Below are positions 27,315-62,571 of a stretch of DNA of 64,000 bases, piece after piece. The DNA is taken from the IMG/VR virus record IMGVR_UViG_2684623050_000001, positions 32,001-96,000 of that record. One strand, written 5' to 3'. This DNA is from a virus (taxonomy: Duplodnaviria; Caudoviricetes). Each line of letters begins with the position of its first letter. Within the stretch, counting starts at the first letter, position 1. Below the pieces are notes generated by a model, which saw only the letters and a list, made by a program, of their open reading frames with translations, made no database searches and had not been told where the DNA came from. The position numbers and the translations under genes are program-made.

Positions 27315-27521
27315 GAAGACTAGAAACGATATTTAGGCTAGGGATGCTACTGGCACGTTATGGAAGCTCTAAGCTTCTGGATACACGCTCGCGTGCTCTA
27401 TATACGTGAGAGCCGATCTCCGGGCGCGCCATGGGAGGCCGAGGAGCCCCTTGGGTCGCCGGTGCCTGCCATGAAATCCCATGGGAGCCCGTGGGTCGCC
27501 GGACGCTTGGAAATCCAAGAG

Positions 27522-27601
27522 CTCCAAGTCCGCGTTCCTGTAAATAGGTATATACAGGTAGATAGTAGGTAATAGGTTTTTACAGGAACGCGGACTTGGA
27601 G
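27522..27601. repeat. Perfect 23-bp inverted repeat around a 34-nt AT-rich TAGGT-repeat core
   Basis: CTCCAAGTCCGCGTTCCTGTAAA / TTTACAGGAACGCGGACTTGGAG. Confidence 0.9.
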
Positions 27602-28329
27602 ATTTCCATGGGATCTCCGGCGACCCGAGGCGTTCCGTGGATCGTTCCAGGGCCCGCCCCTGGCCGTTCCTAAATTCCGGATCAGGAAGACAGACCGCTG
27701 CCGGTGCCCCTCAAGCGGTCCGGACGAGACCTCGGGGCACCGGTCAGCAGCGTCAGCAACAAGCAGGCACAGAGAGAGCCCAGAGGCAGCTGCGCGTCCG
27801 GCGCGCTGCGCTTGCAGTGATAGAGATACAGCAGCGATCGTGGCGAGGCTACCGGATGCGTGTGGGCGTCCAAGGTGTTCGGGGATCGGTGGACGTAGAG
27901 GGAAACGGGCGCCGCGCGGCCGTGTCTATCTGATCCCTCTCCCAGCTATTCCCCACTCCCCGGCTCTCTATGGGCTCACACACGCTGGCGTCTCTCTAGG
28001 GGCTGTCTCTCCCCTCCCCTACGCGCTCCCCACAGACGCTCTCTCGCTCGTGTCTCTCTGATGCTGATGCGCTCTATTCGTTGGATGCGTCGCTCGCTTC
28101 GCTCAGAGCATCACACAGCGCGTTTCGTTCGTTCTGTGTCTCTCTGACGCTCTCACATGCTTCCCGACGCTCTATGAGCTTCTCATGCGATTTGCCCCTA
28201 AGACGCTCTCGATCGGGTCCATGTCTCTCTAGAGCTGATTGATGGTTTTGGGCTGCGAAATCGGGCTGCTCGGGCTCATGTCCCCTGATGAGACATTTTC
28301 CGCAAAATCGCGTTCGCATTGGATTTTGA

Positions 28330-28458
28330 TGGGACATCCATAGGACATCCAGGTGACATCCATGGGACATCGGTGAGACATTCGCGGCCCTCGCCCGATA
28401 GTTCGCATTGAGGTTCGAGGGGACATGCAGGTGACGTCCATGGGACATCCATGAGACA
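28330..28458. repeat. Two clusters of 11-bp tandem repeats (iteron/centromere-like)
   Basis: TGGGACATCCA-type units at 28330, 28341, 28352, 28363, 28374 and 28419, 28430, 28441, 28452. Confidence 0.85.
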
Positions 28459-28561
28459 GGCCTGGCCTCTCCGGACCGTGGCCTGTGTGAGCCTGGACCA
28501 GGCTTCCATGGACCGGGTGCTCTACGAAGAAGGGGCGCCCGTGGTGCGCCCCTGTGTGGTC

Positions 28562-28915
28562 CTAGTCCTCGCTCTCCTTCCGGAGCTGCTCACGGTCGTC
28601 GAGATCATCCACGATGTCCCAGACCTTCCCCTCCCAGTCGTCGTTGTCGTCGGGGAACTCGTTCTCGCCGAGCCTGCGGAACTCTTCGACATGCGCGTTC
28701 ACGGGATAGTGGAGCTTCCGGAAGGCTCTCTTGAGCTCCAGCAGCTCCTCCTCGGTGGGTGGCGTGTCTCGATCGAAGTCGATGTCCCTGGTGTCGCCTC
28801 CCGAGCCCGAGCCGCCCCGTTCGTAGCCGAAGCGCGCCGCGATCTCCTCGATGTCGCCGTCGCTGCCCTCGCTGCGCTCGTAGGTGACTTCGAGGCTGTA
28901 GTTGATGCTGGTCAT
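28562..28915 (-). CDS. Highly acidic hypothetical protein
   Basis: 117 aa, D/E-rich; own promoter and terminator (28531-28553). Confidence 0.65.
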   Translation of the reverse strand: MTSINYSLEVTYERSEGSDGDIEEIAARFGYERGGSGSGGDTRDIDFDRDTPPTEEELLELKRAFRKLHYPVNAHVEEFRRLGENEFPDDNDDWEGKVWDIVDDLDDREQLRKESED

Positions 28916-28985
28916 GACGCTCTCGCTCTGTCGATAGATGCACTATGCGCGAGAGACGTCGGCATGTCGGTTGGGAGCTCGCGGC

Positions 28986-29408
28986 TCAATACCAATACCA
29001 GTCCGCGGTCTGTGCGGGTCCGGAGAGCGGCGCCGTGGTCACGCTCTTGGTGTAGATGCAGGTCCGCTCGTAGTAGGCGGGTGGCTGGCCCTTGTAGCGC
29101 ACGCAGTCGTAGACGCCGGTCCGCTTCTGCACCGTGACCACGGTCCCCTTGGGGATGACGACGCAGCGGCGCCCGGCCGTGGCTGGGATGGTCGGTCCTT
29201 CCGCGAGCTCGGCGAAGGCACGCCGGCCGCGCGCCTGCTCCAATGGGTTCTTCTTGTCGAGCACCATCAGCATGATGCGGTCAAAATCCGCGACGCTCTG
29301 GCAGGCAGGAAGATCCCGCTTGACCGTGTAGGGGCCAGGAGCCTCGGTCTCGGCATGGGCAGCCGTGGTGAGGAGCAGGGACGCGAGGATGAGGGCATGT
29401 GTCTTCAT
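28986..29408 (-). CDS. Secreted/periplasmic protein
   Basis: Signal peptide MKTHALILASLLLTTAAHA; four Cys. Confidence 0.6.
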   Translation of the reverse strand: MKTHALILASLLLTTAAHAETEAPGPYTVKRDLPACQSVADFDRIMLMVLDKKNPLEQARGRRAFAELAEGPTIPATAGRRCVVIPKGTVVTVQKRTGVYDCVRYKGQPPAYYERTCIYTKSVTTAPLSGPAQTADWYWY

Positions 29409-29441
29409 GCCTTCGCATGTAGCTCGCGATCGTAGGGCCTG

Positions 29442-29972
29442 TCAGGTGGCGTCGGCGCTTTCGGCGCCCTGCTCCTTCAGCATCACCTGAATGCGCTCCC
29501 AGGTGGCCGCGTAGGTCTGTGGCAGCCGGTTCTGGTATTGGTAGTGGGCGGCGCGCTTGTAGAGCGGGTGAGCGCGGATCATGGCGTTCCTAGCCATGCT
29601 CTCGGTCGTTCGCTTCTCGTAGATGCGGGTCGCGCTTGGGTCGGTCTGCGGCTTCACGCGACGGATGGCCGGGTAGTGGACGCCCTTCTCCTGGCGTTCG
29701 ATGTGGAGCGCGCGCCTGGCAGCCGAACGGGCCTCTTTGCGCTGCCATGGCGTCGGCAGATGGCAGACGCGGAGCTCGACCTCTAGGAGCGTTCGCTGGC
29801 GAGCCGAGAGACCGGTGTAGGTGAGCCTCTGCTCGATCTCCTTGCGTCGCGCCTCGATCTGCTCGGGCGTGTCGATGTAGGACGCATCGGCGTGGATGCG
29901 AGCCGCTTCTTCAGGGGTGAGACTGCGTGTGAGCGTGCGGCCGTCGGCGCGCGATTGACGCTTGATGGTCAT
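29442..29972 (-). CDS. Hypothetical basic protein
   Basis: 176-aa ORF. Confidence 0.45.
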   Translation of the reverse strand: MTIKRQSRADGRTLTRSLTPEEAARIHADASYIDTPEQIEARRKEIEQRLTYTGLSARQRTLLEVELRVCHLPTPWQRKEARSAARRALHIERQEKGVHYPAIRRVKPQTDPSATRIYEKRTTESMARNAMIRAHPLYKRAAHYQYQNRLPQTYAATWERIQVMLKEQGAESADAT

Positions 29973-30030
29973 GGCTGGTTCGCGGTATAGGGTCCGAATC
30001 CCTACATCGCGAACCAGCGCGCAGGCGAAA

Positions 30031-30306
30031 TCAGTGCTTGAGACCGCCCAGACCGCGGGCGTGGTCGATCACCTGGTCGACGACGTAGGGGACGTGGCGC
30101 GCGTTCAGGGTGAGCAGGCGCTGGGCCTTGCGCAGCTTCTCCAGCCGGTCCTGGGGCTGCTGGAAGAAGGTCGAGGGCTCGTTGTCCAGGATCTCCTGGG
30201 CCGCGGCCTCGGCTAGGTCCGCGACCAGTTGCAGCGGGTCCAGCTCGTTCTGCGGCCGCAGGCCCTGATTGATGCCGAGCTCCTTGAGGATCTCCTCGCC
30301 TTTCAT
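30031..30306 (-). CDS. Hypothetical protein
   Basis: MKGEEILKE..., SD AAGGA. Confidence 0.5.
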   Translation of the reverse strand: MKGEEILKELGINQGLRPQNELDPLQLVADLAEAAAQEILDNEPSTFFQQPQDRLEKLRKAQRLLTLNARHVPYVVDQVIDHARGLGGLKH

Positions 30307-30374
30307 CACGGTGTTCCTTCTCGTCGTCGTCTCGTGGACGTCGCTGTCGAGAGTGAGGTAGCGGCCCGATGCCA

Positions 30375-30788
30375 TCAACCCCTCCCCTTCAGCGCCTTGG
30401 CCTTCCGGCGCGCATGACGGTTGCCGGTCTGGGTTAAGGGGCGATTGAAGTTCAGGTAGTCGTCCACGATCGTTTGGGTCATCATGGTCTTCCCCTGCCG
30501 GCGCCCGTGCTCCAACGTGAGCTTCTCGATCTGCATGCGGGTGTTGGCGTCGACCCGGTAGGCGTTCGAGGCGATGTCGTGGGCCACCTGGTCCAGGTGG
30601 GCGCGGATCTCGACGGCGATGGTCTGGTCCTCGCACTTGATGTCGACGCCAACGCCGGCGCCGCGCATCAGCAGGAAGCGCACATGCTCCTCGGCCTGGG
30701 CCTTCACCCGCTCGATCTCGTCGCCGACGACCGTGATGTCGGTGTGGCCGTCGAGGATGCGGACGGTGATGTCGGGGCGCTCAGTCAT
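30375..30788 (-). CDS. Hypothetical protein
   Basis: 137 aa, coupled operon. Confidence 0.55.
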   Translation of the reverse strand: MTERPDITVRILDGHTDITVVGDEIERVKAQAEEHVRFLLMRGAGVGVDIKCEDQTIAVEIRAHLDQVAHDIASNAYRVDANTRMQIEKLTLEHGRRQGKTMMTQTIVDDYLNFNRPLTQTGNRHARRKAKALKGRG

Positions 30789-31059
30789 TGGGCATGCGTC
30801 CTTGGCTGCGCAGCACCCATTCGATCTGGAGCTCGTTGCGCAGGCGGGTGAGGTAGGCGAACACGCGGGCGTAGGTCCGCGCCCCGCCGCGGGTCTTGAC
30901 GTGGACGTGGACGTTGCGGATGCCCTTGGCGAAGAGATCCATCAGGGCCTTCTCCGCGGTGATGACCGCGGTCCGCTCGGCGCCGGAGACCTTCAGGGCG
31001 CCGTTGGGTGTGGTGAGGACGACGTAGACGTCCTCGGGGAGCGCGAGGTCGCGGCTCAT
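30781..31059 (-). CDS. Hypothetical protein
   Basis: 92 aa, coupled operon. Confidence 0.5.
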   Translation of the reverse strand: MSRDLALPEDVYVVLTTPNGALKVSGAERTAVITAEKALMDLFAKGIRNVHVHVKTRGGARTYARVFAYLTRLRNELQIEWVLRSQGRMPND

Positions 31060-31382
31060 CGGGATGCCTCGGCGATGAACTCGCAGATCGCCCGTGCGGG
31101 ATTCGGCAGCTCGGGCTGCATCAGAGCCTCGCGGGCCTGCTCCATCGCCGCATCGAACTCGGCGATTACATCCTCGGGGATGATGTCGTCGAACGCCTCG
31201 GCAACATCGAGCAGCGTCTGGAGCGTGCGCAGGTCGATGGTCACGGTGCCCGGCATGAGGCGCACGTAGTCGCTGCCGTCGAGACGCTGGATCGTCTGAG
31301 CGATCTGACCGCCCGGAGCATCAGTCTGCTCGATGATGCGCTCGCCCGGCAGCATGCGGGTGATGGTGTCTTGGTTCTGCAT
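31056..31382 (-). CDS. Hypothetical protein
   Basis: MQNQDTITRM..., downstream of promoter 31416-31444. Confidence 0.55.
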   Translation of the reverse strand: MQNQDTITRMLPGERIIEQTDAPGGQIAQTIQRLDGSDYVRLMPGTVTIDLRTLQTLLDVAEAFDDIIPEDVIAEFDAAMEQAREALMQPELPNPARAICEFIAEASR

Positions 31383-31453
31383 GTCTCTGCTCGCTGTGTG
31401 CTCTGCGATGATTTGACTATCGCAGAGCAAATTCGGCATGTCGGCTGGAACGA

Positions 31454-32044
31454 CTAGGCGGCGTTCGTGCGGTAGTCTTTGACGACTTCCACGACGACGC
31501 TGGATTCTGGGGCGCTCGCGGCGATCGTGACGGTCGTCAGGCCCCAGGCGGTGCTGTCCATCGACATCCAGCTGTTCTGCTCGGCAGTCTTGTTGGGGCT
31601 GAACTCGCTGTGGACATGCACGGCGTTGTTCGGCTCGGCGAGGAATGCAGCGGCGATACGCTCGGCTTCCTCGGAGATCTGGGCGCGCAGGGTCGGCTCG
31701 GCGCAGGCGGCGTCTCGCATCTGCTCCTCGCAGTCGAAGACGATCTTCATGGACGCACGGAACTGCTCTACGGCTTCGGCAGCGGTCTCGAACACGAGGA
31801 CTGCGGTGATGTCCGGGCCGCAATCGGTGTAGGCGAACAGGGTCTTGCCCTGGCTCGCGGCGATCAGCGCGTGCGAGTGCTTGTCGGTCTCGTATTCGTA
31901 GTGGGTGTCCGGCAGGTCGGCATCGTCTGGCGCTGTGTCGCAGGTCAGGACCGGGCCGTTGTTGCTCTCGATCAGCGTCACGACGACGTGATCGTAGTCG
32001 ATGGTCGAGGCGTCGCTGTGGCTGGTGATGTGTTGGATGGTCAT
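31454..32044 (-). CDS. Acidic hypothetical protein
   Basis: 196 aa, GG-free leader. Confidence 0.6.
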   Translation of the reverse strand: MTIQHITSHSDASTIDYDHVVVTLIESNNGPVLTCDTAPDDADLPDTHYEYETDKHSHALIAASQGKTLFAYTDCGPDITAVLVFETAAEAVEQFRASMKIVFDCEEQMRDAACAEPTLRAQISEEAERIAAAFLAEPNNAVHVHSEFSPNKTAEQNSWMSMDSTAWGLTTVTIAASAPESSVVVEVVKDYRTNAA

Positions 32045-32115
32045 CGCGTGCTCTCGCTAAGTCGTTGCTGACATTGCGTTTATAGCAATGTCAGCGCTGT
32101 CTGTGCGCGGGGTCT

Positions 32116-32553
32116 CTAGGCGGCGAGACGGTTCTCGTCGTGCCACTCGCGCTGCGCGACGCCGAGGTAGAGAACGGCCTTCCGGCAGAGCGGCGAGGCC
32201 GCCTGGCAGCTCCGGACGTGGCGCGCGGCGTCGTCGTCGGAGAGGAAGATCGGCAGGTCGTCCCAGCGCTGAATGATCGGGCCACTCTCCATTGTCTCGA
32301 ACACGCCCCAGCCGCGCGCCAGCGCCGTCTCCTGGTCCTCGTTGGTCCAGGTGGGCATCACGTCGTCGATGGGCGTGTCGCCGATCCGCAGCGTGCCGGG
32401 GACCACGCAGTCGGCAGGGTTGCCGCTCTCGATCAGCGGTAGGACCACGGCGACCGCTCGGCTGGCCGGCGCTGGGGAAGTCGCGCCGTTCCTAAACGGG
32501 TCGCTGACCTGACCCTCGTAGTCGCGATCGTCCTCGAACGGAGAGATGCTCAT
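32116..32553 (-). CDS. Hypothetical protein
   Basis: 145 aa; palindrome directly upstream. Confidence 0.55.
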   Translation of the reverse strand: MSISPFEDDRDYEGQVSDPFRNGATSPAPASRAVAVVLPLIESGNPADCVVPGTLRIGDTPIDDVMPTWTNEDQETALARGWGVFETMESGPIIQRWDDLPIFLSDDDAARHVRSCQAASPLCRKAVLYLGVAQREWHDENRLAA

Positions 32554-32649
32554 CTTAAGTCACCCGTGACTTACTTGTTTCGACAAAACTATATTTACGA
32601 TTACTTGTCGGTTAGTCGGGTGGGGCTGTGTGGCCCCACCCTGGCGATG

Positions 32650-34266: not shown

Positions 34267-34514
34267 GTGTAAGTCACCTGTGACTGACTGTTGTTGACAA
34301 GATTATATTGACGAAATCGCGTCGGCTTATCTTCTGGAAGCTTTCGGGCGACGACGGCGAGATCTGTCGCGCTGGGTCCAATCCTTGTCCCGGACCCAGT
34401 GCTTGCGCGGCCGGGCGCCGACGAAGATCGGCAGGTAGAGCGGCTCGATCGGGTTGACCAGGCGGATCACGTTGCGGAAGCTGCGAGCCCAGCCCGCCCG
34501 GTTGCGGTCGAGGC

Positions 34515-35717: not shown

Positions 35718-35899
35718 TCGTGACTTACCCTCTTGCGTGTCGATTTCTGATGCTCTGACAATACGTTAGAGCAGTCGGCAACGCTTGCGGTGTGTGCTGG
35801 TAAGTCAGCTCTGACTGATTCGAGGCGCATGCGCAAGTGGCAAGAAAGTCACTGGTGACTGACTGCCCCTTGAAATCGCCCATGGATGCGCGATTATTT

Positions 35900-36210: not shown

Positions 36211-36224
36211 ACGCCTGAAACGAG

Positions 36225-36246
36225 AAAAGGGGCCCGAAGGCCCCTT
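36225..36246 (-). terminator. Intrinsic terminator
   Basis: AAGGGGCC-CGAA-GGCCCCTT with T-run on the minus strand. Confidence 0.7.
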
Positions 36247-36658: not shown

Positions 36659-37692
36659 CAGGCCGCGAGCTGATCCGCGCGGCCGACCACACCGTTCTCG
36701 GACGGCGGGTTGATGCGCACGTCGTAGCGGACGCCGGCCTCGACCAGCGTGCCGGTCTCCGCAGGGGTCAGATCGAAGAACACGTTCTTCTCCACGATCC
36801 GGGTGTGGAGCTTCACGAGCAGCGCATCGACCGCGGCCAGCCTGTCGGCGTAGCGATCGGCGTCGGCGCTGTCGTCGTTCGCGACGGTCTTGAGAGCGGC
36901 GAGCTCCTGCTCGACCATCGCCTTCTCCTCGCGCAGCTCGCCGATGACCTCGGCCTGCTGCTTGACCGTCTCGTCGAGCTCCTCGATCGTCGCCGTCTGG
37001 CTCTCGATCGCCAGGTTGCGGGACTGAAGCACGTCCATCAGGTGCCCGTGCTTCATCTGGCGATCTTCGATCTCGCCTTCGAGCAGAGCGGCGTGCTCCT
37101 GGAGCCCCTCGACTTCGCCGGTGAGCTTCTCGATCACGCGGGCGATGATGCCCTTCTCGTTCTCCTCGCCGCCGTAGGTGCCGACGAAGCCCGACGCGAT
37201 GATCGCCTCGAAGATGGTCTCGATGACCTCGGCCGGGTCGTAGCCGTTCTCCGGCAGCTGCGGGTAGATCTTGCGGAGCGCGAGGTCGATCTCGGCGAAG
37301 GTCTCCTCGTCGAGCGCGAGCTCCGTGTTCTTCTCGCGGATCACCTGGCCGAGGTGGTTGATGGTCTCGGCCCCCTTGGCGAGCGTGCCGGCCGCGGCGT
37401 TCATGAGGAGCGCGCTGGTCTGCTCCTGCTCCAGCTTCTTCAGGAGCTCGTTGCGGTAGTGGTCGATGACGTCGTTCAGCTCGCGGATCGTGACGTCGCG
37501 GTCGGCGATCATCTGGAACTGGTCGGACTTGAGCAGGCTGCCCAGGTGCGAGGCGACGTTGACGGTGCGCTCGTTGGTCTCGGTCTCGGCAGCGCGGGCG
37601 CGACGGAAGGCGCGGATCGAGAAGCCACTCAGAAGGCCGGACAGGCCGAGCGAGGCAGCGGCGACGAGATTGGTGGTGCTGAGGATGTCCAT
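36658..37692 (-). CDS. Membrane-anchored coiled-coil protein
   Basis: N-terminal TM followed by long acidic heptads. Confidence 0.65.
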   Translation of the reverse strand: MDILSTTNLVAAASLGLSGLLSGFSIRAFRRARAAETETNERTVNVASHLGSLLKSDQFQMIADRDVTIRELNDVIDHYRNELLKKLEQEQTSALLMNAAAGTLAKGAETINHLGQVIREKNTELALDEETFAEIDLALRKIYPQLPENGYDPAEVIETIFEAIIASGFVGTYGGEENEKGIIARVIEKLTGEVEGLQEHAALLEGEIEDRQMKHGHLMDVLQSRNLAIESQTATIEELDETVKQQAEVIGELREEKAMVEQELAALKTVANDDSADADRYADRLAAVDALLVKLHTRIVEKNVFFDLTPAETGTLVEAGVRYDVRINPPSENGVVGRADQLAA

Positions 37693-37756
37693 GTCGATCT
37701 TTCTCTGTGTGCGCTCACTCAGCGCTGACTGACTATAGCGCTCGCGTGTCGGCGTT

Positions 37757-38659
37757 TCAGAAGAGAAAACGCACGAGCGCGAGGCAGATGACGACGGCGA
37801 TGAGCGGGACGGCCGCAACACCCACCTTCGGCGCACCGGGGACCGCGATCGGTGCGGCCCCGGATTGGAGATCGTCCTCCCAGCTCTCGCCGAGCTGAAG
37901 GTGCTGCGTGTCGGTCGCGGCAACCTGGATGAGGACGGGAAGCTTGGAGATCGCGACCCCGAAGCCCCAGAACTGGCCGGGGTTGAGGGTGCGCAGGCCG
38001 AGTGCCTCGTCGCTTTTCAGCGGGAAGCCCAGGTTGTTCGCCGCGGCGTTGCGGTCGAGCACCTGCCCCACCCGGCCGATCAGCCAGGTGTTGCACTCGG
38101 ACACGGCGCTCTTGGAGATCTTGGCGAGGCGCTGGGTCGCGAGGATACCCGTGAAGCCCCGCTTGCGCCCCTGGCTCATCAGGGTGTGGATCGAGGCGCG
38201 CGAGGCCGCCCCGCCGTCCTGGGGCGCGTAGCGGTGCGCCTCGTCGAGCACGATGAACACGGGCTGCCACAGCGCGCGCGGCGCGGCCATCAGGGCGTCG
38301 ATCAGGCCGGCGATGATGCGGCGCTGGATCTCCAGATGCTGCGCGTCCTCGAACTGCAGGACGACGGACATCTGCCCCTTGAGGATGTCGTGGGCGAGGT
38401 TGGCGACGTTCTTGGGCGTCACCTTCATCTTCGAGCGCGGCCCGCCCACGATCACGTAGGGGTGAGCCTGGCGCAGGGTGTGGAACTCACCCTCGGGGTC
38501 GATGACGATGTGGAGCGCGGCGCCCCAGGTCTGCTCCAGGACCTTCCGGACGGTGTAGGTCTTGCCGCTGCCGGTGTTGCCGACGATCGCCAGGTGGGTG
38601 CCGATCAGCTTGCCCGCGTCGATGGCTATGTCGTTGCCGTCGTGCGTTGTCCCGATCAT
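37757..38659 (-). CDS. HerA/DUF87-family ATPase with C-terminal TM
   Basis: HLAIVGNTGSGKT, IDPEGEF, LDEAHRYAPQ, GRKRG, ATQR. Confidence 0.88.
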   Translation of the reverse strand: MIGTTHDGNDIAIDAGKLIGTHLAIVGNTGSGKTYTVRKVLEQTWGAALHIVIDPEGEFHTLRQAHPYVIVGGPRSKMKVTPKNVANLAHDILKGQMSVVLQFEDAQHLEIQRRIIAGLIDALMAAPRALWQPVFIVLDEAHRYAPQDGGAASRASIHTLMSQGRKRGFTGILATQRLAKISKSAVSECNTWLIGRVGQVLDRNAAANNLGFPLKSDEALGLRTLNPGQFWGFGVAISKLPVLIQVAATDTQHLQLGESWEDDLQSGAAPIAVPGAPKVGVAAVPLIAVVICLALVRFLF

Positions 38660-38742
38660 CGCTAAGTCGCTCTCGCGCTGTTTCGCTGTTGAGCTACACA
38701 ATGCGCGAGAGCAGTCGGCTGCGCTACTGGCGCAGCGTGGCG

Positions 38743-42082: not shown

Positions 42083-42363
42083 CAGCGGCCCTCCCACATC
42101 GCCTTGAGTTTCGCCACGCCGGCCTTGGCTTCGTCGTGGTCGTATTTCGGGTGGCGCTTCCAGAACTCCAGCTTCTTCTCGCACATGGTCAGCTCGACCC
42201 GTGCGCGCCGCTGCTCCTCACGGTCCTTGGTCGACTTCGCGATGAAGTCGAGCATGAGGTAGTTCTCGTAGTGGCGCAGATAGGCTTTGGTGCCGTTCAT
42301 GCGCCACACGTCAATCTTGACGCCTTCGCCGCTCTTGTTGTCGGCGTAGAAGATCGCAGCCAT
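42082..42363 (-). CDS. Hypothetical protein
   Basis: 93 aa; ELTMCEKKLEFWKRHP. Confidence 0.6.
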   Translation of the reverse strand: MAAIFYADNKSGEGVKIDVWRMNGTKAYLRHYENYLMLDFIAKSTKDREEQRRARVELTMCEKKLEFWKRHPKYDHDEAKAGVAKLKAMWEGR

Positions 42364-42432
42364 TGCTGTTCTCTCGTCTTGTTTCGACTGAGAGAAGATC
42401 GCACGCAGAACTCGGCGTGTCGGTTGGCGCGT

Positions 42433-44421: not shown

Positions 44422-44680
44422 GGCCTTCTCCTTGTTGCTCTCCAGTGCGCTCAGTAAGTCAGCGCTGACTGATTATAGCAGTGCGCGCTTGGCGTTTTCA
44501 AAGCGATCGACACAGACCGGACTCAGAGGCGGCGTGGAATGCGCGACGTTGCTCTGTGAGACGCGCGAACGCTTTCGAGCATCGCTGATGCGTCGCGAGC
44601 GAACCGACGCTGTGCGAGCTTCTGAGAGCGTCGCAGATCGCGTCCTAGCGAGAGAGCGAAGTCGCTGTTTCGCGAAACGC

Positions 44681-44706
44681 AAAAGCCCCGCACGAGGGCG
44701 GGGCTT
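44681..44706 (-). terminator. Intrinsic terminator
   Basis: AAGCCCCG...CGGGGCTT with T-run on the minus strand. Confidence 0.65.
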
Positions 44707-46704: not shown

Positions 46705-47598
46705 TTAGAGGCTCATGAGGATCTTGAGCGCCGCGGCGAGCACGCTCTTGTCGTGGAGCTTGATCTTGTTGCCCGAGCGCACCGCGATCTTGAGCGCGGG
46801 GAACAGCGCCATCATCTGCCCCGACTGCGAGCGCGCGGTGCCCTCGCCGAGCCCCGTCGCCTTGAGGGCGTTCGTGAGCTCCACGCCCGTCATCTCGCCG
46901 CCCGGAGCGGCAGCCAGGGCCCGGAAGGCGATCTGCGTGTAGGTCGAGGGCAGACGCTCGTTGGCGACGCTCACGAGGAGATTCTCGAACTTCTCGCGGA
47001 CCTTCTTCTGCGCGGGGCAGGCGGCGATCACGGCGGCCTTGTGGGCGGCGAGATCGGCCGGCGCCTCGCCGTCGGTGAGGACGAAGATCTCGGCCGGCAG
47101 GTCGTTGAGGCCCTGGCGCACGCGGCCGGTGCCGGCGCTCGTCTTCTTGACCGCCTTCGCGGGCTTGGCAGCCGCGGCAGTCGCAGCGGCATCGGCGTCG
47201 AGGCTGGTGTCGTCGGCCGGCTGCTCGGCGTAGATCGCGTCGCGCTGCTCCTCGACCTCGATCTCCGCGCCGATCGCGTCGGCCAGGTCCTCGGTCACTT
47301 CGGTCTCCGGCGTGTCGGTGCCGCTCGCGACGATCGCCTCGTCGTCGCCGCCCTCGATCTCGGTCGCTTCCATCGAGACGGTCTCGGTGTCGGCCGCAGC
47401 CTCACCGGCCTCGATCATCTCCTCGACGGGCTCCTCGACGACCGGCTCCTCTCGGACCTCGGTCTGCTCGGGCGCGGCGTCGGCGACGGCCTCGATCTCC
47501 TGGATGTCGCCCTCGTCGATGTCGAGGTCGGCGAGGAGCAGGTCGATGTCGGCGTTCTGATCGACGTTGAGCGCGGCAGTGTTCGTGTTGACGTCCAT
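46705..47598 (-). CDS. Acidic N-terminus + C-terminal wHTH-like protein
   Basis: D/E-rich N-half; GTARSQSGQMMALFPALKIAVR wing motif. Confidence 0.7.
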   Translation of the reverse strand: MDVNTNTAALNVDQNADIDLLLADLDIDEGDIQEIEAVADAAPEQTEVREEPVVEEPVEEMIEAGEAAADTETVSMEATEIEGGDDEAIVASGTDTPETEVTEDLADAIGAEIEVEEQRDAIYAEQPADDTSLDADAAATAAAAKPAKAVKKTSAGTGRVRQGLNDLPAEIFVLTDGEAPADLAAHKAAVIAACPAQKKVREKFENLLVSVANERLPSTYTQIAFRALAAAPGGEMTGVELTNALKATGLGEGTARSQSGQMMALFPALKIAVRSGNKIKLHDKSVLAAALKILMSL

Positions 47599-47740
47599 TG
47601 TATGTCTTCCCTCTGTGTGAGCGCTGTGTGCTGCGCTGTGCTGTTGACTATTACGTTATAGCTTCAGCAACTCGGCGTGTCGGCTGGAACACAATGGAAG
47701 ACCAGCGGCTTTCGTGCTTCGCTAAACCGCTGGATCGCGA

Positions 47741-49774: not shown

Positions 49775-49859
49775 TCATCCTCTCAATGTGCAAACGCTCT
49801 CGCGTCACTCTGTTATAGCGACGCGAGAGCGGCAGTTCAGTCAGTGCTGACTGGTTTCT

Positions 49860-53757: not shown

Positions 53758-53862
53758 GGGCGCGTCTCTCGCTCTCTGTGTGTGCGCTGCGCGTCTCAGT
53801 CAGCGCTGACTGACTTGTTATAGCGACAAAATCGCGGCGTTTCAGTCAGCGCTGAGTGATTT

Positions 53863-55671: not shown

Positions 55672-55701
55672 TGAACCCTCGTTAGTCAGTAGTGACTGAA
55701 A

Positions 55702-56229: not shown

Positions 56230-56236
56230 GGACGGA

Positions 56237-56644: not shown

Positions 56645-56669
56645 AGATTTCTCCTTCGCTAGATAGCGG

Positions 56670-57548: not shown

Positions 57549-57720
57549 GTTGATGTCCTCTATGTGCGGGAAGGGGAGGAGCGTTGGGCCGAGGGCGCAC
57601 CTGCAAACCCTCGCTCCTCCCCGGTGCCTGTTCCCAGGCAGCGCTGCGTGTCTCAGTCAGCGCTGACTGATTTGTTATAGCGAGCGAGACGCGGCGTTTC
57701 GCTCGAAAAAGTGCGGAAGC

Positions 57721-60309
57721 TTACGCTGCCGCCTTCTCGTCCTCGTCGCCCTCGCGGAAGTCGATCGGGCAGGCGCCGGCCCCGCAATCGACGTGCTCGA
57801 AGCCGATCTCCTCCTTGACCGCGTTGTCGTTCGCGATCTCAGCGGCGATCTTCTCGAACTCCAGCTTCGTGACCGGCTGCTCGGGCTGATACTCGTAGGC
57901 CGTGGTGTCGGACTGCGGCATCACCGAGCAGCAACGGATCGAGAACTGGCCCTCGATCAGCGTGGTCAGGAACTGGTCGAAGCTGACGGTCTTCGGGTCA
58001 TACTTCAACGTGTAGCTGATCTGGTTCCCGGACTCCTCCAGCGGGGTCTCGCCGTCATCGTCCACGCCCGTGAGCCAATACTTCTCCAGCAGGCGCAGGA
58101 ACTGATACTGCTCCTCCGGGGTCGCCTCGGCCGCGGTCACGACCCATTCCCCACCGTCCAGTTCGCAGATCGTGGGCTTGGTCGGGAAGCCGACGATCGT
58201 GGTGCCGGAGTAGGACTTGAGCTCGCGAACCGGGTAGCCCTTCTCGCGATAGACCTGGATCAGCGGGTCATCGTGACGGAACTGCACCCAGCGCAGGAAC
58301 TCGCGCATCGACGGCAGGTGCGCGCCCTCGGTCAGGCCGAACAGCTTCGACGTGGTGCCGGCCGGCTTGAACGTCGTGTTCGTGTGCGGCACGACCACGC
58401 CGAGCTCCTCGGCATACTCCTCGGCCTCCTCGACGATCGCCCGCTTGAAGCGCGAGACGGTCTGCCAGAGCTCCTGCGACTTCTCCTCGTCGATCAGGTC
58501 GTGCCAGGTGAAGCCGAAGCGAGCGTAGGCCCACTCGTGGAAGCCCGTCATGCCGACGCCGATGCGGTTCGTGCGCTTGACCTCGCGGCCGTAGAGGCAG
58601 TCCATCAGGTTCGTGCGCATCAGCATGCGAACGGCCGTCCGGAAGGCGTCCTCGGCGTCGTCGTCCCAGGCCCAGAGCCGCTGATCGGCCGAGAGATCCT
58701 GGTCGTTGCGCCAGAGCGTCCCGGCGTGGAACGGAACGACGTCCGCGATCACGCAGTAGGCGCCGAGCATCAGCAGGCAGATCTCGCCGCAGGGGTTCGT
58801 AATCATCGGCCAACCCATGCGGGCGCAGGCCATGACCAGATCCTTCATGAGCGGCAGGGTCTCGGGGTCGAGCTGGAACTTGGCGCTCTCGGCGACGAGA
58901 CCGTCGAGGTAGCTGTCGAGCCCGTCCATCTTCCGGGTCAGCTTGTCCTGGTTGATGAAGCCCGGCTCGCCCGTGCCGTCGTGATAGGCGGCATGCGCAG
59001 CCGCACGCAGCACGCGGTAGGCGTGAGCCTCGTCCTCGGTGATGCGGGCGAAGAAGCCGAACGCCCGGCCCTTACGCAGAGCCTGGAGACGCGCTTCGAG
59101 GATCGGGCCGTCGGCGTAGCCGGCGCACATCGCATGGACCTTGCGGACCGCGGTCCGGAACTCCTCGTCGATCGTGACCGAGTTGTTCGAGCTCCAGAGG
59201 AAGCCGCCCCGCTTGATCGAGATGAAGTCGAGGACGGAGCGATCCTTCCAGAACTTCGTCGCCATGCGAGCAGCGCGACGGGCACCGCCCACGAGCACGC
59301 ACTCGGCCGCGTAGTGGTCGGCGTAGAGAGCGGCCAGCCACGGGGCCATGCCGGCGTCACGGACGGCCGCGATCGACTTCACCGCACCCATCAGCGGGCC
59401 CGGACCCGACGCGGGGCGCCCCTGCATACCCATGATCGGGGCGCCGTTCGGACGGACATCCGAGAAGTCGAGGATCAGGACCTCCTCGCGGCGACGCTCG
59501 AAGGCGAAGCGCTCGATGATCTCGATGGCCTTGGCCCAGCCCTCGCGGCTGTCGGGCACCTTGAACGTCGTGATCTTGCGGCCCTGGTAGAGATGACGCG
59601 CGTCACGCTCGGTCAGGAAGCCGGTGATCTTGCCCGAGGCTACGTCGTCGTGACCCCAGCCGATGACCGGGACGACGATCGGCATCTGGTTGAGATCGGC
59701 GCGGATCATCGCGTCGGAGTAGTCGCGGCCGACGCCCGAGCCGTTCAGCAGCAGGTAGAACAGCAGGAAGGTGGTCGCCGAGGTCGAGCAGTTGGTGAAG
59801 ACCTCCATGTTGCGCGTGCGCTGGGTCTCGTCGCCGTGCTGCAGGTGCCGGCCGGACATGAGCAGCGAGGCCTGGCGCAGGTGATGATGCGAGCGGTCGA
59901 ACTCGCGCGCCCAGGCGGGCGGGTTGCTCGTCCATTCCTCGTTGGTGCTGGTCGCCTCGGGGTCGAAGTCGGGCGACAGCATCGCGTTGCCGATCGCGAC
60001 GCGGCGCGCCACGTCGGCCCATTCCTCCATCTCGATCTTCTCGTGCGGGATGAACCAGCCCTGCACGCGCTCGCCGTCGCCCGAGTCCACGAAATACTCG
60101 GTCGGCGTGCCGTAGCCCTGCGCCTTGGCGAAGCGGGCGATCTGGCTGTCGAGGGAGGTCTTGTCGTCGCGCGGGATGTCGAAGGTGACGACGGTCTCGG
60201 CCGAGACGGGCTTCTTGATCTTGCGGTTCACGGTCCGGTCGGCGACCGCCTGCCCCATGCCGGGGAAGTAGGAGCGCGCTTCGGGAATGAGGGTGTTGGT
60301 GGACGTCAT
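57721..60309 (-). CDS. nrdJ: Class II (B12-dependent) ribonucleotide reductase
   Basis: NC, NPCGEI, KPAGTTS, C-terminal CGAGACP. Confidence 0.93.
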   Translation of the reverse strand: MTSTNTLIPEARSYFPGMGQAVADRTVNRKIKKPVSAETVVTFDIPRDDKTSLDSQIARFAKAQGYGTPTEYFVDSGDGERVQGWFIPHEKIEMEEWADVARRVAIGNAMLSPDFDPEATSTNEEWTSNPPAWAREFDRSHHHLRQASLLMSGRHLQHGDETQRTRNMEVFTNCSTSATTFLLFYLLLNGSGVGRDYSDAMIRADLNQMPIVVPVIGWGHDDVASGKITGFLTERDARHLYQGRKITTFKVPDSREGWAKAIEIIERFAFERRREEVLILDFSDVRPNGAPIMGMQGRPASGPGPLMGAVKSIAAVRDAGMAPWLAALYADHYAAECVLVGGARRAARMATKFWKDRSVLDFISIKRGGFLWSSNNSVTIDEEFRTAVRKVHAMCAGYADGPILEARLQALRKGRAFGFFARITEDEAHAYRVLRAAAHAAYHDGTGEPGFINQDKLTRKMDGLDSYLDGLVAESAKFQLDPETLPLMKDLVMACARMGWPMITNPCGEICLLMLGAYCVIADVVPFHAGTLWRNDQDLSADQRLWAWDDDAEDAFRTAVRMLMRTNLMDCLYGREVKRTNRIGVGMTGFHEWAYARFGFTWHDLIDEEKSQELWQTVSRFKRAIVEEAEEYAEELGVVVPHTNTTFKPAGTTSKLFGLTEGAHLPSMREFLRWVQFRHDDPLIQVYREKGYPVRELKSYSGTTIVGFPTKPTICELDGGEWVVTAAEATPEEQYQFLRLLEKYWLTGVDDDGETPLEESGNQISYTLKYDPKTVSFDQFLTTLIEGQFSIRCCSVMPQSDTTAYEYQPEQPVTKLEFEKIAAEIANDNAVKEEIGFEHVDCGAGACPIDFREGDEDEKAAA

Positions 60310-60396
60310 CGTGTTGCTTCTTGCTCTCGGTTCAGAGGGGCACGCATCGTAAATAAGTCAGTGATGACTGACCATTCTTGACACGCGAAAAACGGC

Positions 60397-60963
60397 CTAC
60401 GCTGCCATGCGGAATGAGCCGCGCATCATGGCGAGCGAACGCCGAAACTCGTCGGTGAGGACACCGGCTTCCGCCACGGCGATGGCGTCGGCCAGGTGCT
60501 CGTTGTCGGCGATCAGCGGACCGGTCGCCTTGCCGCGGGCCCGCAGCCAGTCGGCGTGAGGATACTTGGCGACCATCGCCTCGATCATCTCACCCTTGCT
60601 CGCGTAGGGCTTCACGACGGCCTTGGTCTCCAACGGCATGATCTGTGTCACCGGAATCGGCGACGAGGCCAGGATGCCGACGACGATGCCGAAGGCGCGG
60701 CTCGACTTCGCGTCCTGGGCGCCCGAGGGGACCTCGGTGAAGATCGCGCTGACACCGGCCGCTTCCTGAAGGAAGGCCGTGGACAGCTTCTGCGACCGCA
60801 CGAGGTCGTCGGCCGTAACGCGGACGGTCTTGTTCGGGTTCTTCTTGGTCACGATCAGCCGCAGCCCGGTGAGTTCGAGCTCCAGGGTGTCGAGATCGAG
60901 CAGCATCCGAGCCATTCCCCAGTGGGTGAAGCTCGGATCGTTCGCAAGGATGGGGATCTTCAT
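60397..60963 (-). CDS. ruvC: RuvC-like Holliday junction resolvase
   Basis: NDPSFTHWG, TEVP, ASKGEMI, EHLADAIA. Confidence 0.85.
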   Translation of the reverse strand: MKIPILANDPSFTHWGMARMLLDLDTLELELTGLRLIVTKKNPNKTVRVTADDLVRSQKLSTAFLQEAAGVSAIFTEVPSGAQDAKSSRAFGIVVGILASSPIPVTQIMPLETKAVVKPYASKGEMIEAMVAKYPHADWLRARGKATGPLIADNEHLADAIAVAEAGVLTDEFRRSLAMMRGSFRMAA

Positions 60964-61256
60964 GCGTATGCGCCCCAGTTTTCGGGGACGTCCTCTGGTT
61001 CGGGAGCCGGCAGCGGCGCCGGGTCCATGGGAAAATTGGGATACCGACGAATGGCCGGCGTCAAATCGGTCATGAACTCCCTGGAGTAGACTTCCAGGGT
61101 CATCGAGGCCGGACGGGTCACGACGCGATGAGGGGTCGCGTCGCCGCACTCCTCGAACCGCATCGTCTCAGCCGCACGCATCTCGCAGTTGCCGAGCTGG
61201 CCCTTGAAGACCGTGCCGTCGTCGAAGGTGATGGTGACGTTGGAGCCGGGGCGCAT
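60960..61256 (-). CDS. Hypothetical protein ending WGAYA
   Basis: 98 aa, coupled. Confidence 0.5.
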   Translation of the reverse strand: MRPGSNVTITFDDGTVFKGQLGNCEMRAAETMRFEECGDATPHRVVTRPASMTLEVYSREFMTDLTPAIRRYPNFPMDPAPLPAPEPEDVPENWGAYA

Positions 61257-61831
61257 CAGAACATGCCCCAGCTGGCGTTGTCCTCGCCGAGATCCTCACG
61301 GGTCACGACGATGGCTTCGAGCTCCTTGCGCTCGGCCTCCTGCGCCAGCCGGATCTGCTCGCGCTTGAACTCGACCCGCTGTCGGGCCTCCTCCTGAAGC
61401 CGCGGCTTGATCCGCTGCGCTAGGTCGGCGACCAGCATGTCGTATTCGTTCCGCCCGATGTAGTCGTTGCGGTCGCGCGCCTTCCACGGCTGGCTCGGGT
61501 TGAGCCTCTGATGCTGGTAGGCGGGGCCGGCATCGTCTCCCGTCCGCAGCCGGATGTAGATGACGTCCACCCAGAGATCCTGGATGTCGATGAAGTTGCC
61601 GTTCCCGACGATCATCACGCCGCTGGTGTCGGTGCTCGCCTTGGCGATCTCGTGCTCGGGCGTGTAGTGGACGTCGGACACTGCCATCAGCGGACCTCTG
61701 CGGCCCTCGATCGCGCCCGTCGTGACCTCGAAGGGCATCCCGTTGATACGAAACACCCGGCCGTTCTCGTAGACGCCCTGAAGGAGCGCCTCTTGCCCGA
61801 TGAGGCCCTGGAACTCCTCGGCGAAGGGCAT
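61256..61831 (-). CDS. Hypothetical protein ending WGMF
   Basis: MPFAEEFQ...DNASWGMF. Confidence 0.6.
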   Translation of the reverse strand: MPFAEEFQGLIGQEALLQGVYENGRVFRINGMPFEVTTGAIEGRRGPLMAVSDVHYTPEHEIAKASTDTSGVMIVGNGNFIDIQDLWVDVIYIRLRTGDDAGPAYQHQRLNPSQPWKARDRNDYIGRNEYDMLVADLAQRIKPRLQEEARQRVEFKREQIRLAQEAERKELEAIVVTREDLGEDNASWGMF

Positions 61832-62328
61832 TAGAACATGCCCCAGGCGTCGTTGTCCGCGTAGCGCTCCGACTGCTCGACCAGAGCCTCGGCCTCGCGC
61901 TCCGTCTCCTCGCGCTTGAGGCGGTCGAGGGTCTGAACGGCCAGGTAGTCGACGTAGGAGGAGAGCTGCCAGCCGGCCGTGTCGGCGTCCTCGAACCCAC
62001 CGGCCTTGGCGCAGACCTGGCTCAGGCTGACGGCGAGCTTGGGCAGGAACCGATCCACGTTCTTCAACGGGATGTCGATCACCGGCCACTCGTCCGAGTC
62101 CATCAGCTCGAATTCGAGGATGTAGGGGTCACGCTTGCCGCGGCGCGCGCTCTTGAACAGCAGGTCGGTCCCGCCGTTGAAGGGCACGGTCTTGCCGCTC
62201 TTGGTCGAGCCCTCGCCGAAGTGAGCGTAGAGCTTGGTCGGGCCCGGCAGCATGTGAGCTTCGCCGGTCGCCGCCTTCTGCAGGATGGCGAGAACCTCGT
62301 CCGCCGCCTGCTCCTCGATCTCTGTCAT
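61831..62328 (-). CDS. Hypothetical protein ending WGMF
   Basis: MTEIEEQ...DNDAWGMF. Confidence 0.65.
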   Translation of the reverse strand: MTEIEEQAADEVLAILQKAATGEAHMLPGPTKLYAHFGEGSTKSGKTVPFNGGTDLLFKSARRGKRDPYILEFELMDSDEWPVIDIPLKNVDRFLPKLAVSLSQVCAKAGGFEDADTAGWQLSSYVDYLAVQTLDRLKREETEREAEALVEQSERYADNDAWGMF

Positions 62329-62367
62329 CTCCGTTCCTCAGTCAGTGCTGACTTACTAGATATAGCG

Positions 62368-62571
62368 TCAATGAAGCGGCTTTTCACATCGCTTCAGTTG
62401 GGCTTTCACGTTGGCGAGGTTCCGGTGATCGGAAGGGGTCGCCGACGTGATGATGAAGCAGCCCGTCAGGACGTAGGTCCAGCGCAGGTGGTTCTTCTTC
62501 GTCTTCTCGATGGTCCAGCCCTCGCGCTTCTTCTGGCGCGCGAGAGCGTTCATGTCGCCCTTGAGGCTCAT
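62368..62571 (-). CDS. HicA-like small protein
   Basis: GWTIEKTKKNHLRW...SATPSDHRNLAN. Confidence 0.65.
   Translation of the reverse strand: MSLKGDMNALARQKKREGWTIEKTKKNHLRWTYVLTGCFIITSATPSDHRNLANVKAQLKRCEKPLH

Follow-up and report, generated by a model that had tools for sequence, protein, structure and literature searches.

Several phages are known to redirect transcription in stages. In phiEco32, phage 7-11 and SPO1 (the last through gp28 and gp33/34), early genes are transcribed from host sigma-70 promoters, after which a small phage sigma factor redirects the host core RNA polymerase to a repeated phage promoter (PMC8948821, PMC4331800, PMC13401047). The middle promoters of T4, which precede early-middle genes including rIIA and rIIB, are described as combining a MotA box at -30, an AsiA-remodelled sigma-70 and a -10 of sigma-70 type (PMC6755090, PMC2988021). 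Here we analyse a 64,000-nucleotide stretch of the virus record IMGVR_UViG_2684623050_000001 (hereafter, the window), which corresponds to positions 33062-97061 of C2, a replicon of 117,697 bp and 65.3% G+C that is separate from the chromosome beside it (5.44 Mb, 68.5% G+C). An earlier note on this DNA had drawn attention to promoters depleted in the dinucleotide GG. We found that C2 carries, on its coding strand, a repeated class of promoter cassettes from which both GG and CC are excluded between the last CC of an upstream box and the ribosome-binding site; this class is likely to be a phage sigma regulon with an operator, that is, a second tier of phage-specific promoters served by a sigma factor encoded outside the window. 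Coordinates preceded by C2 refer to the replicon; all others refer to the window, unless another replicon is named.

Each cassette has a -35-type box GAAACGCC (or, in four promoters, the variant CCGACAYGCC), followed after 13 nt by GC-TATAAY as the -10. Next come a palindrome TCAGTCAGCGCTGACTGA, which probably covers the start site, and lastly a leader. As in phiEco32, 7-11 and SPO1, a sigma gene is found together with a repeated non-host promoter. C2 differs from these phages in being a RepC-type plasmid-prophage rather than a strictly lytic phage, in keeping a sigma-70-like -10 so that the upstream box alone is novel, in the palindrome over the predicted start site, and in the strict exclusion of GG and CC from box to ribosome-binding site. 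The likeness to T4 middle promoters lies in a good sigma-70-type -10 with a conserved box near -30 (GAAACGCC ends 13 nt upstream of the hexamer) and no -35 hexamer, with rIIA among the genes served. The C2 box is, however, unrelated in sequence to that of T4, a dedicated sigma is present, and no homologue of MotA (PF09114) or AsiA (PF09010) was found in the genome, by searches that had no positive control and could have passed over distant analogues.

Two other systems resemble individual parts of the cassette. The operators of the P1 C1 repressor and the centromere sites of N15 are short sites dispersed at promoters of a plasmid-prophage, and the 31 C2 palindromes, most of them directly after a -10, would likewise let one protein silence lytic genes; the C2 site, however, has perfect palindromic symmetry over 18 bp, and some of its copies stand after stop codons or over a -35-type box. 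Relatives of C2 depart further from this arrangement, with a different palindrome (TAAGTAAGnnnCTTACTTA) in RHph_X66 (hereafter, X66) and an inverted repeat around the -10 in Pseudomonas phage nickie. Among promoters of the extracytoplasmic function (ECF) type, that of Bacillus sigma-W reads TGAAAC-N16-CGTA. The C2 box also reads TGAAAC at 16 nt from the -10, but this -10 is TATAAY and not CGTA-like, the box is extended by an invariant GCC, and region 2 of the C2 sigma protein (208 aa) is closer to the primary sigmas SigA, RpoD and RpoS than to ECF sigmas. In the portions of the literature covered, we found no published description of a GG/CC exclusion zone, or of an operon whose proteins lack Gly, Pro and Trp.

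The nearest annotated relatives of C2 are RHEph10-like Rhizobium phages of 115-122 kb, whose DnaE is 56-59% identical to that of C2; the phage collection searched contained no near-identical DNA, and viral contigs searched with rIIA alone gave zero related loci. A 117.5-kb RepC-type plasmid-like prophage of Sinorhizobium, pLM21S1, has been described as kin of RHEph10 (PMC5537653, PMC7969092). With these elements C2 shares its size class, RepC, DnaE, CobS/CobT, rIIA/rIIB, SbcCD, RecA and ParA/ParB-like genes. A simple gene caller predicts 153 genes on C2, which cover 88% of the replicon and lie nearly all on the minus strand. They include virion genes (a tape-measure protein and a J-like tail fibre), genes of replication and repair (a DnaE-type polymerase, DnaB, primase, ligase, SbcCD and a UvsW-like helicase), CobS/CobT-like proteins, rIIA, rIIB and a class II ribonucleotide reductase, and plasmid functions (a ParA-like ATPase, two ParB_N proteins, and RepC with the RP-C N- and C-terminal domains). 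Given the RepC replicon and this kinship, C2 is a phage-plasmid, a siphovirus of the RHEph10/pLM21S1 kind. Promoters are not described in the sections of the pLM21S1 and RHEph10 papers that we could consult, and the words 'promoter' and 'sigma' have 0 occurrences in the text of PMC5537653 as available. The cassettes thus offer, for a poorly studied group of phage-plasmids, a testable promoter grammar of upstream box, -10, operator and leader.

Repeated promoter cassettes and their GG/CC-free zones

A listing of maximal GG/CC-free tracts recovered, within 1-2 bases, all of the tracts that the earlier note had given as examples (28911-28961, 31374-31435, 37690-37751, 42361-42414, 47611-47674, 53760-53836 and 57638-57693). 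When the -10 alone was used as an anchor (GCTA[TA]A[ATG]N, itself without GG or CC), the nearest upstream GG/CC was found exactly 13 nt from the hexamer in 14 of the 18 coding-strand matches on C2, and in none of the five matches on the opposite strand. The dinucleotide at this spacing is CC on the sense strand in 14/14 cases. The note had placed a first GG at spacer positions 14-15 from the -10, as we find; this retained 'GG' is the invariant 3' end (CC) of the -35-type box. The consensus of the C2 promoters (n = 14) is GAAacGCCGa-N8-cGC-TATAac, and reads as TGAAAC-N16-TATAAC with an invariant GCC extension. The upstream element is not the degenerate -35 that had been proposed, but a conserved box, GAAACGCC, that is not of sigma-70 type. 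All four -10 variants reported previously (TATAAC, TATAAT, TATAGT and CATAGT) were found, as were TATATC, GATAGT and TATTGT. A conserved motif distinct from the host consensus is thus repeated on the coding strand before phage genes, as in a phage sigma promoter class.

We scanned the whole window under strict settings (CC, 12-14 nt, a hexamer with at least 4/6 matches to TATAAT, then at least 18 nt free of GG/CC) and obtained 13 cassettes on the minus (coding) strand and none on the plus strand. Ten of the 13 lie within 27317-62387, the interval for which about 16 promoters had been counted; four looser cases recognised by eye (38719, 34326, 42416 and 40242) bring the total there to about 14. 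The observation as such is confirmed. A loose regular expression (regex) applied to C2 gave 18 matches, 18/18 on the coding strand, of which 17 are followed by GG/CC-free runs of 42-77 nt; one match, inside rIIA, is a false cassette. The positions of individual cassettes are given in Table 1.

Such tracts might be expected if AT-rich intergenic DNA in a GC-rich genome lacked GG by composition and the fixed GG were there by chance. The G+C content of intergenic DNA on C2 is indeed lower than that of coding DNA (0.59 vs 0.66), and AT-rich spacers of the host also yield long GG/CC-free tracts. The tracts of the phage, however, have 50-60% G+C, and intergenic DNA overall is not depleted, with rho(GG/CC) at 0.80 compared with 0.78 in coding DNA and 0.00 in a GG/CC-free island described below, where the dinucleotides GC and CG are over-represented (rho 1.84 and 1.64). 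The depletion is confined to short regions at gene 5' ends and is not general to non-coding DNA. In a 50-kb segment of C2, we counted 19 over-long GG/CC-free tracts, defined as longer than the length expected once in 10^4, vs 2.0 in first-order Markov simulations; the same test gave 3 vs 0.2 for GC/GC, 2 vs 0.4 for AA/TT and 0 for the remaining seven dinucleotide classes. A tract of at least 40 nt occurs within 150 nt upstream of 31 of the 153 C2 genes (20.3%), as against 58 of 2243 host genes (2.6%). The region +8..+37, which played no part in selecting the promoters, has GG/CC at 0.29 (C2), 0.34 (the Methylobacterium oryzae plasmid NZ_CP090351.1) and 0.35 (X66) of what composition predicts. 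Together with the identical 13-nt spacing, the bias of the strict scan to one strand, and the conservation of the layout in three other replicons, these controls lead us to reject AT-richness and chance, which have next to no probability as an explanation. We also rejected GG/CC exclusion as a trait of host sigma-70-like promoters (14 matches, observed/expected 0.80, GG/CC-free spacer in 0/14), although this is a weak control, as the host promoters are unverified.

The cassette architecture and its strand specificity are conserved in related replicons. With the -10 as anchor, CC was found at 13-14 nt in 19 of 33 coding-strand matches in X66 (59% G+C) and in 8 of 16 in the M. oryzae plasmid, compared with 0/11 and 0/5 on the respective other strands. 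The -10 is identical in the three replicons and the box differs: GAAACGCC in C2, C.TG.CGCA.TCC in X66 and AAAACCCGA in the M. oryzae plasmid, which keeps about 20 promoter-type GG/CC-free tracts. In nickie, a more distant relative (L030, 45000-94999), there are 24 tracts of at least 40 nt in 50 kb, many of them promoter-like, and the -10 is enclosed by an inverted repeat, as in GTGCGCTC-TATAAAC-TGAGCGCAC. The count of long tracts taken alone weighs against conservation, as it shows no enrichment in X66 (2 vs 2.0) or RHEph10 (3 vs 1.0); this is because tracts are shorter there, and the effect in X66 is seen in the positional tests and not in the long-tract count. RHEph10 (L029) was covered by the long-tract count, and C2, X66 and the M. 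oryzae plasmid by the hexamer-anchored test.

A sigma-family protein, the palindrome and the reading of the cassettes

A candidate reader of the cassettes is a 208-aa sigma-like protein encoded at C2 111575-112201, outside the window, and 53% identical to an M. oryzae protein. The M. oryzae plasmid, X66 and RHEph10 carry an annotated sigma gene in the slot CobS-sigma-hyp-DnaE, and the C2 open reading frame (ORF) is syntenic with it. Compared alone with Pfam Sigma70_r2, the C2 protein gives E = 0.0022 and 18.2 bits, under the cut-off of 24; among sampled members of its family, which comprises 316 cluster representatives at E <=0.001, 67 of 68 match. A profile of the family matches region 2-3 of SigA, RpoD and RpoS among solved structures (best E = 7.9e-12, to SigA). 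For the predicted model of the 208-aa protein (pLDDT 92, two domains), 50 of the 50 top Foldseek matches are sigma chains (best E = 4.4e-3, probability 1.00), with alignments of 199-271 columns and low TM-scores. The region 2 by which members of the sigma-70 family are recognised is thus found in this protein. Profile matches, predicted fold and gene order together establish a true sigma-family gene in a conserved position on the element. A region 2 like that of primary sigmas, joined to a divergent C-terminal half, fits a constant TATAAY combined with a box that differs between elements.

Near-consensus host-type promoters (TTGACN-N16-18-TANNNT) number only two on the whole replicon, set against about 20 cassettes that share another upstream box. 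One of the two is the promoter of the GG/CC-free island, which reads TTGACT-N16-TAAATT and which the earlier note had correctly described as having a canonical TTGACT and no GG. The note's two-tier cascade is in this way supported in outline; the likely second-tier factor is not among the proteins that it had named as possible activators, those encoded at 24492, 26363 and 46705. None of these has a named Pfam or NCBIfam match. The first is an island protein, the second is its paralogue, and the third is unrelated to both and alone matches PHROGs, in two families of unknown function. A weaker promoter-like sequence, TTGCTT-N17-GATAAC, recognised by eye within a palindrome, precedes the CobS-sigma operon. 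All regex-defined GCC cassettes lie elsewhere than at the head of this operon; one site that resembles a cassette was, however, placed upstream of the sigma gene (near C2 117.6 kb) by the -10-anchored scan, and the order is suggestive rather than clean.

Host sigma-70 would, on our proposal, start the sigma operon and the GG/CC-free island, and the element's own 208-aa sigma, bound to the core RNA polymerase of the host, would then direct it to the promoters made of box and TATAAY, giving an early-to-middle cascade. From the sequence comparisons, we consider this sigma the likeliest reader of the cassette promoters, and on balance a probable one. Several observations weigh against it. Region 4 (Sigma70_r4) was matched by Pfam in 0 of the 68 family members, and the E-values obtained with Foldseek are modest; with a -10 of sigma-70 type, the cassettes could be read by host RpoD and an activator; and nickie has promoter-like tracts, yet tblastn found no homologue of the 208-aa sigma there. 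The exclusion is therefore not strictly tied to this sigma family. Among RNA runs, none was listed as containing the element, and four with the same label yielded 0 reads from it.

The sigma-70-like -10 and the nickie tracts favour the alternative that the earlier note had adopted, in which the cassettes are host sigma-70 promoters with a weak -35, switched on in the manner of T4 MotA/AsiA by a phage activator bound to the GAAACGCC box near -30, while the 208-aa sigma serves other promoters, for example late ones. This explanation can also draw on a box centred at about -30 in place of a canonical -35, as at T4 middle promoters, and on cassettes of the structural region that have another upstream element (CTCC-N12-TAGAAT), which indicates more than one promoter class. 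Against it stand the failure to detect relatives of MotA and AsiA (with the limit on those searches given above), the three previously named proteins, which lack a named family in Pfam and NCBIfam and of which 46705 alone matches PHROGs, in families of unknown function, and the conserved sigma gene early in a long operon, with the regex-defined cassettes away from the head of that operon, even though the -10-anchored site near C2 117.6 kb is an exception. We regard an activator of this type as unlikely.

The palindrome starts 0-6 nt after the -10 and has a core CAGTCAGnnCTGACTG within the full form TCAGTCAGCGCTGACTGA, with a length of 16-20 bp. C2 has 31 copies, at a density of 26 per 100 kb that compares with about 1 on the chromosome. 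Most begin 0-6 nt after a -10-like hexamer; some stand behind a stop codon or across the box of the promoter that comes next. The same site is thus repeated at many promoters, across the expected start site, as at the operator-controlled promoters of plasmid-prophages. As a start 6-8 nt after the hexamer would fall in the left arm, we read the palindrome as an operator and not as a 5' RNA hairpin. It would then be bound by a putative repressor that holds some 25-30 promoters silent in the plasmid state, a suggestion from sequence that to us could go either way. The candidates for such a repressor, none of them linked to the palindrome, are a helix-turn-helix (HTH) protein of XRE type in X66, small HTH- or RHH-looking ORFs near repC, and the winged-helix-like island protein; an RHH family is also present in a Pfam census of C2 proteins. 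The switching of the element between lytic growth and life as a plasmid can in this way be given a candidate sigma factor and a candidate operator.

The GG/CC-free island and its proteins

Exclusion of GG and CC extends over an entire small operon, the island, which is made up of two GG/CC-free tracts of 1531 bp (23672-25202) and 151 bp (25203-25353) with one CC between them (Table 1). With a single CC in the whole unit, the encoded proteins are forced to do without Gly, Pro and Trp; codon junctions and the non-coding parts lack GG and CC too. It is unusual for one dinucleotide pair to be excluded with base-pair-sharp borders, and also for such an exclusion to span an operon from end to end. 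Across the family of the 204-aa protein (43 sequences, 42 of them database relatives, with Methylorubrum, Methylobacterium and Faunimonas among the source names), Gly makes up 0.26%, Pro 0.22% and Trp 0.01% of residues, and all three are absent in 25/43. The protein is homologous to the gene under a GG/CC-free island of X66 (6537-7462; E = 7e-8). A promoter-like duplicate segment precedes island gene 3. A search for paralogous GG-free modules returned the duplicated island promoter region and a single 29-nt match between 63887-63915 and 24407-24434, the former in another GG/CC-free patch and the latter in an internal intergenic region of the island (93% identical).

Table 1. Positions of the island, neighbouring features and promoter cassettes in the window
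Feature	Position	Strand	Description
Island	23672..25353	-	Small operon, promoter to hairpin-rich 3' end; single CC (25202-25203) in 1682 bp, 53% G+C
Island promoter	25144..25171	-	Near-consensus sigma-70-type TTGACT-N16-TAAATT; imperfect palindrome copy overlaps -35
Island gene 1 (P0002)	24492..25106	-	204 aa, no Gly/Pro/Trp; confident fold, winged-helix-like C-terminal part
Island gene 2	24198..24389	-	63 aa, helical-looking ORF, no Gly/Pro/Trp
Island gene 3 (P0003)	23757..24137	-	126 aa, no Gly/Pro/Trp; no family match
302-aa paralogue of island protein	26363..27271	-	27% identity, E = 5e-13; ordinary GG/CC content and codon usage
CCATGG repeat clusters (four, intergenic)	25364-25592, 26151-26306, 27429-27611, 28360-28511		16 of the 31 sites on the replicon
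Cassette	62338..62379	-	Box GTGAAAAGCC, -10 TATATC (62359-62364), palindrome, gene start 62328
Cassette	57639..57694	-	Box GCGAAACGCC, -10 TATAAC (57674-57679), perfect palindrome 57654-57669
Cassette upstream of rIIA	53761..53837	-	Box CTGAAACGCC, -10 TATAAC (53817-53822), palindrome 53797-53812; second palindrome over box 53843-53858
Cassette	49781..49832	-	Box CTGAACTGCC overlapped by palindrome 49838-49853, -10 TATAAC (49812-49817)
Cassette	47612..47675	-	Variant box CCGACACGCC, -10 TATAAC (47655-47660); upstream of 297-aa gene 46705-47598
Cassette	44444..44492	-	Box TGAAAACGCC, -10 TATAAT (44472-44477), palindrome 44456-44471
Cassette	37691..37752	-	Box CTGAAACGCC, -10 TATAGT (37732-37737), palindrome 37716-37731; tract to ATG
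Cassette	35731..35778	-	Box AAGCGTTGCC, -10 TATTGT (35758-35763)
Cassette	31375..31436	-	Variant box CCGACATGCC, -10 GATAGT (31416-31421); tract beyond ATG
Cassette	28912..28962	-	Variant box CCGACATGCC, -10 CATAGT (28942-28947); tract beyond ATG
Looser cassette	38653..38719	-	GCCG-N12-CATTGT; below strict -10 criterion
Looser cassette	42361..42416	-	Variant box CCGACACGCC, weak -10 GATCTT
Looser cassette	34278..34326	-	GCCG then AATATAAT-type -10; imperfect palindrome at 34271
Structural-region cassette	3413..3469	-	CTCC-N12-TAGAAT then palindrome 3431-3446

Related island loci mostly keep the trait. In 11 of 14 of them (9/12 if L007/L011 and L017/L018, which give identical values and look like duplicates, are each counted once) there are 0-6 GG/CC per roughly 550-620 bp, at 55-66% G+C. 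The exceptions are L019 (16), L020 (51) and L010 (64 GG/CC in 594 bp; gene 2045-2638). In L010 and the M. oryzae plasmid (L025, 44971-45579), which are of the same lineage, GG/CC occurs mostly at codon positions 2-3 and 3-1 and the protein is still nearly without Gly, Pro and Trp; the promoter spacer of the island gene in the L010 lineage is full of C runs. The M. oryzae lineage is thus a natural relaxation experiment, in which the island is relaxed and the promoter tracts are kept. It follows that the exclusion in the island and that in the cassettes are separable and may differ in cause. On C2 itself the exclusion covers one of two paralogues, the 204-aa copy and not the 302-aa copy.

The predicted model of the 204-aa protein is confident (pLDDT 92.4), and a Foldseek search of the PDB gave weak winged-helix matches (best E = 0.039). 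BFVD gave two uncharacterised look-alikes of the island protein, and the structure atlas searched gave no named family. No named family was found for the island proteins in Pfam or NCBIfam, and they have no match in PHROGs. The island family was found in only 2 of 401 genomes, that of C2 included, and a scan of genome contigs gave one locus.

Four intergenic clusters of CCATGG repeats lie near the island, one upstream of each of four successive genes, the island among them, and arrays of this kind are found on either side of the homologous gene in most related loci. Judged by their arrangement, they look like iterons or regulator-binding arrays. A role for the island protein as an iteron-binding Rep was set aside, as the RepC gene is found elsewhere on the replicon.

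Why GG and CC are excluded

In the three replicons examined by anchor, the two dinucleotides behave differently on the sense strand. GG is depleted from -45 to +20 and is back at +20..+35. CC is normal or enriched through the box, falls to zero from -13 to +20, stands at 0.007-0.010 at +20..+35 and then recovers. One way to read this strand asymmetry is that, within a cassette, CC is set aside as the unique mark of the sigma box and GG as that of the Shine-Dalgarno sequence. Further copies of CC or GG would then be purged, so that the sigma factor does not engage out of register or cause early pausing, no decoy ribosome site arises upstream, and no CC pairs with the Shine-Dalgarno sequence. 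We tentatively prefer this unique-mark explanation, while rating it well short of probable. Should such a rule of design hold, by which neither the sigma box nor the ribosome site has a second copy, insulated expression cassettes for GC-rich bacteria could be modelled on these natural ones.

Not all observations agree with it. After 20 promoters, the first downstream dinucleotide is GG in 12 and CC in 8, so that 8/20 tracts end at CC in place of a Shine-Dalgarno GG; a Shine-Dalgarno-type GG ends the tract in 7 of the 20, and the ATG is reached or passed in 5. The 123 genes without a promoter of their own show no depletion of CC upstream of the start codon, which weakens a general rule for ribosome-binding sites. 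The non-transcribed spacer is free as well, with 0 GG/CC where 27.8 would be expected over 14 spacers; as the set was selected for this property, the independent evidence is the distribution of distances, with 14/18 at 13 nt. Tracts also occur in nickie, where this sigma was not detected. Finally, unique marks leave a 1.7-kb operon with a single GG/CC unexplained.

A second explanation treats the GG/CC-free zones as blind spots for a putative factor that reads GG/CC in DNA or RNA and acts elsewhere on the element or in the host, be it a nuclease, a modification of bases or a protein that coats or silences, much as CpG-poor viral genomes escape a vertebrate sensor. It would account for a cassette core without both GG and CC, for a whole 1.7-kb transcription unit with one GG/CC and proteins that lack three residues, and for the persistence of the trait in most related island loci, across the 43 family proteins and in nickie. 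One version is the modification-state switch of the earlier note, by which the retained GG would distinguish incoming virion DNA from replicated or plasmid DNA. This version we do not support: the retained CC is an invariant promoter position and not a variable switch, the same cassettes occur in phage and plasmid records, and no modifying enzyme was found. In six-frame searches with working controls, N6_N4_Mtase, DNA_methylase (C5) and the TGT/DpdA type matched the chromosome only, and MethyltransfD12 matched nowhere; a Pfam census of 73 further C2 proteins showed no DNA-modifying enzyme among 25 listed of 29 families, although unannotated proteins could hide novel ones. The strand-asymmetric flanks are not expected from a duplex-symmetric reader, and in the M. 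oryzae lineage promoter tracts persist beside an island gene of normal GG/CC content. We therefore hold blind spots to be improbable, and below the unique-mark explanation. Stated more broadly, the exclusion could be a conserved rule in DnaE/CobST-type siphophages and phage-plasmids of Alpha- and Gammaproteobacteria, applying to all cassettes and to one early or maintenance operon, with an unknown GG/CC reader; in this wider form the idea is doubtful too, if by a slightly smaller degree. The sigma holoenzyme might itself have the property of such a reader; other candidates are a base modification, a nuclease and a silencer that binds DNA or RNA, and a specific reader, if one does exist, would be a new layer of phage or host control.

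Avoidance of host defences is a third possibility, with tracts and island lacking restriction sites or CRISPR PAMs that contain GG/CC. The PAM of type I-F CRISPR systems is CC and that of some type II systems is NGG, and in phages with stepwise DNA entry (T5, T7) the early region is free of restriction sites. C2 is clearly under restriction pressure, as several palindromes are absent or nearly so genome-wide: GTAC has 0 occurrences in 117.7 kb compared with 4868 on the host chromosome, and observed vs expected counts are 0/144.7 for CTCGAG, 0/30.4 for TTCGAA, 0/21.2 for CACGTG, 0/14.5 for GTGCAC, 0/10.1 for ACATGT, 1/49 for ATCGAT, 1/34.5 for TGATCA and 1/31.1 for GGATCC. The palindromes that consist of or contain GG/CC, however, are at expectation (observed/expected 1.01 for GGCC, 1.17 for CCGG, 1.09 for CCGCGG, 1.09 for CCATGG and 1.31 for GGCGCC), which leads us to reject restriction avoidance of GG/CC sites. 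The real avoidance on this element is genome-wide and not local, clear patches of 50 bp cannot shield a genome from cleavage, and the island keeps other palindromes (GCGC, CGCG, GCATGC and AAGCTT). Avoidance of PAMs is unsupported in this one host, whose genome, 100% complete by marker genes, lacks Cas1 and Csy3. For the promoter tracts, defence avoidance is thus largely refuted and very improbable.

Several smaller features of C2 and its relatives were noted. RepC is encoded outside the window at C2 1173-2360 on the plus strand, in a replicon region spanning C2 1-2900, and small ORFs that look RHH- and HTH-like by eye adjoin it. The second consensus sigma-70-type promoter of C2, at position 2869 on the minus strand, is directed at repC in antisense orientation, and half a palindrome overlaps it; from its placement, it may drive a counter-transcript to repC. 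The CobT-like protein is one 778-aa ORF in X66 and a pair of neighbouring ORFs (334 and 462 aa) in the C2 gene model, at C2 115594-116598 and 114206-115594, outside the window, a split that may be an effect of the gene caller. The first of these ends in a helix-turn-helix of Sigma70_r4 type (30.6 bits); the Sigma70_r4 match in the Pfam census was accordingly rejected as a second sigma, being the HTH inside the CobT-like region.

GG/CC-free patches without a cassette occur at 28031-28195 and 44537-44686, and a small gene of nickie (locus 30208-30513) is largely GG/CC-free. In the structural-gene region, a 46-bp tract at 13135-13180 has 26% G+C, is rich in TA/TAG and is by far the most AT-rich spot of the window; a weak cassette-like match (13162-13167) adjoins it. 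Two GG/CC-free leaders on the minus strand, at 25990-26060 and 27267-27336, have in common a segment GTCAGCAACGAAGCGCAGCGCTTCACA with a hairpin GAAGCGCAGCGCTTC. They precede a 106-aa gene and the 302-aa paralogue, and a similar segment is found in the M. oryzae plasmid at 43453-43506.

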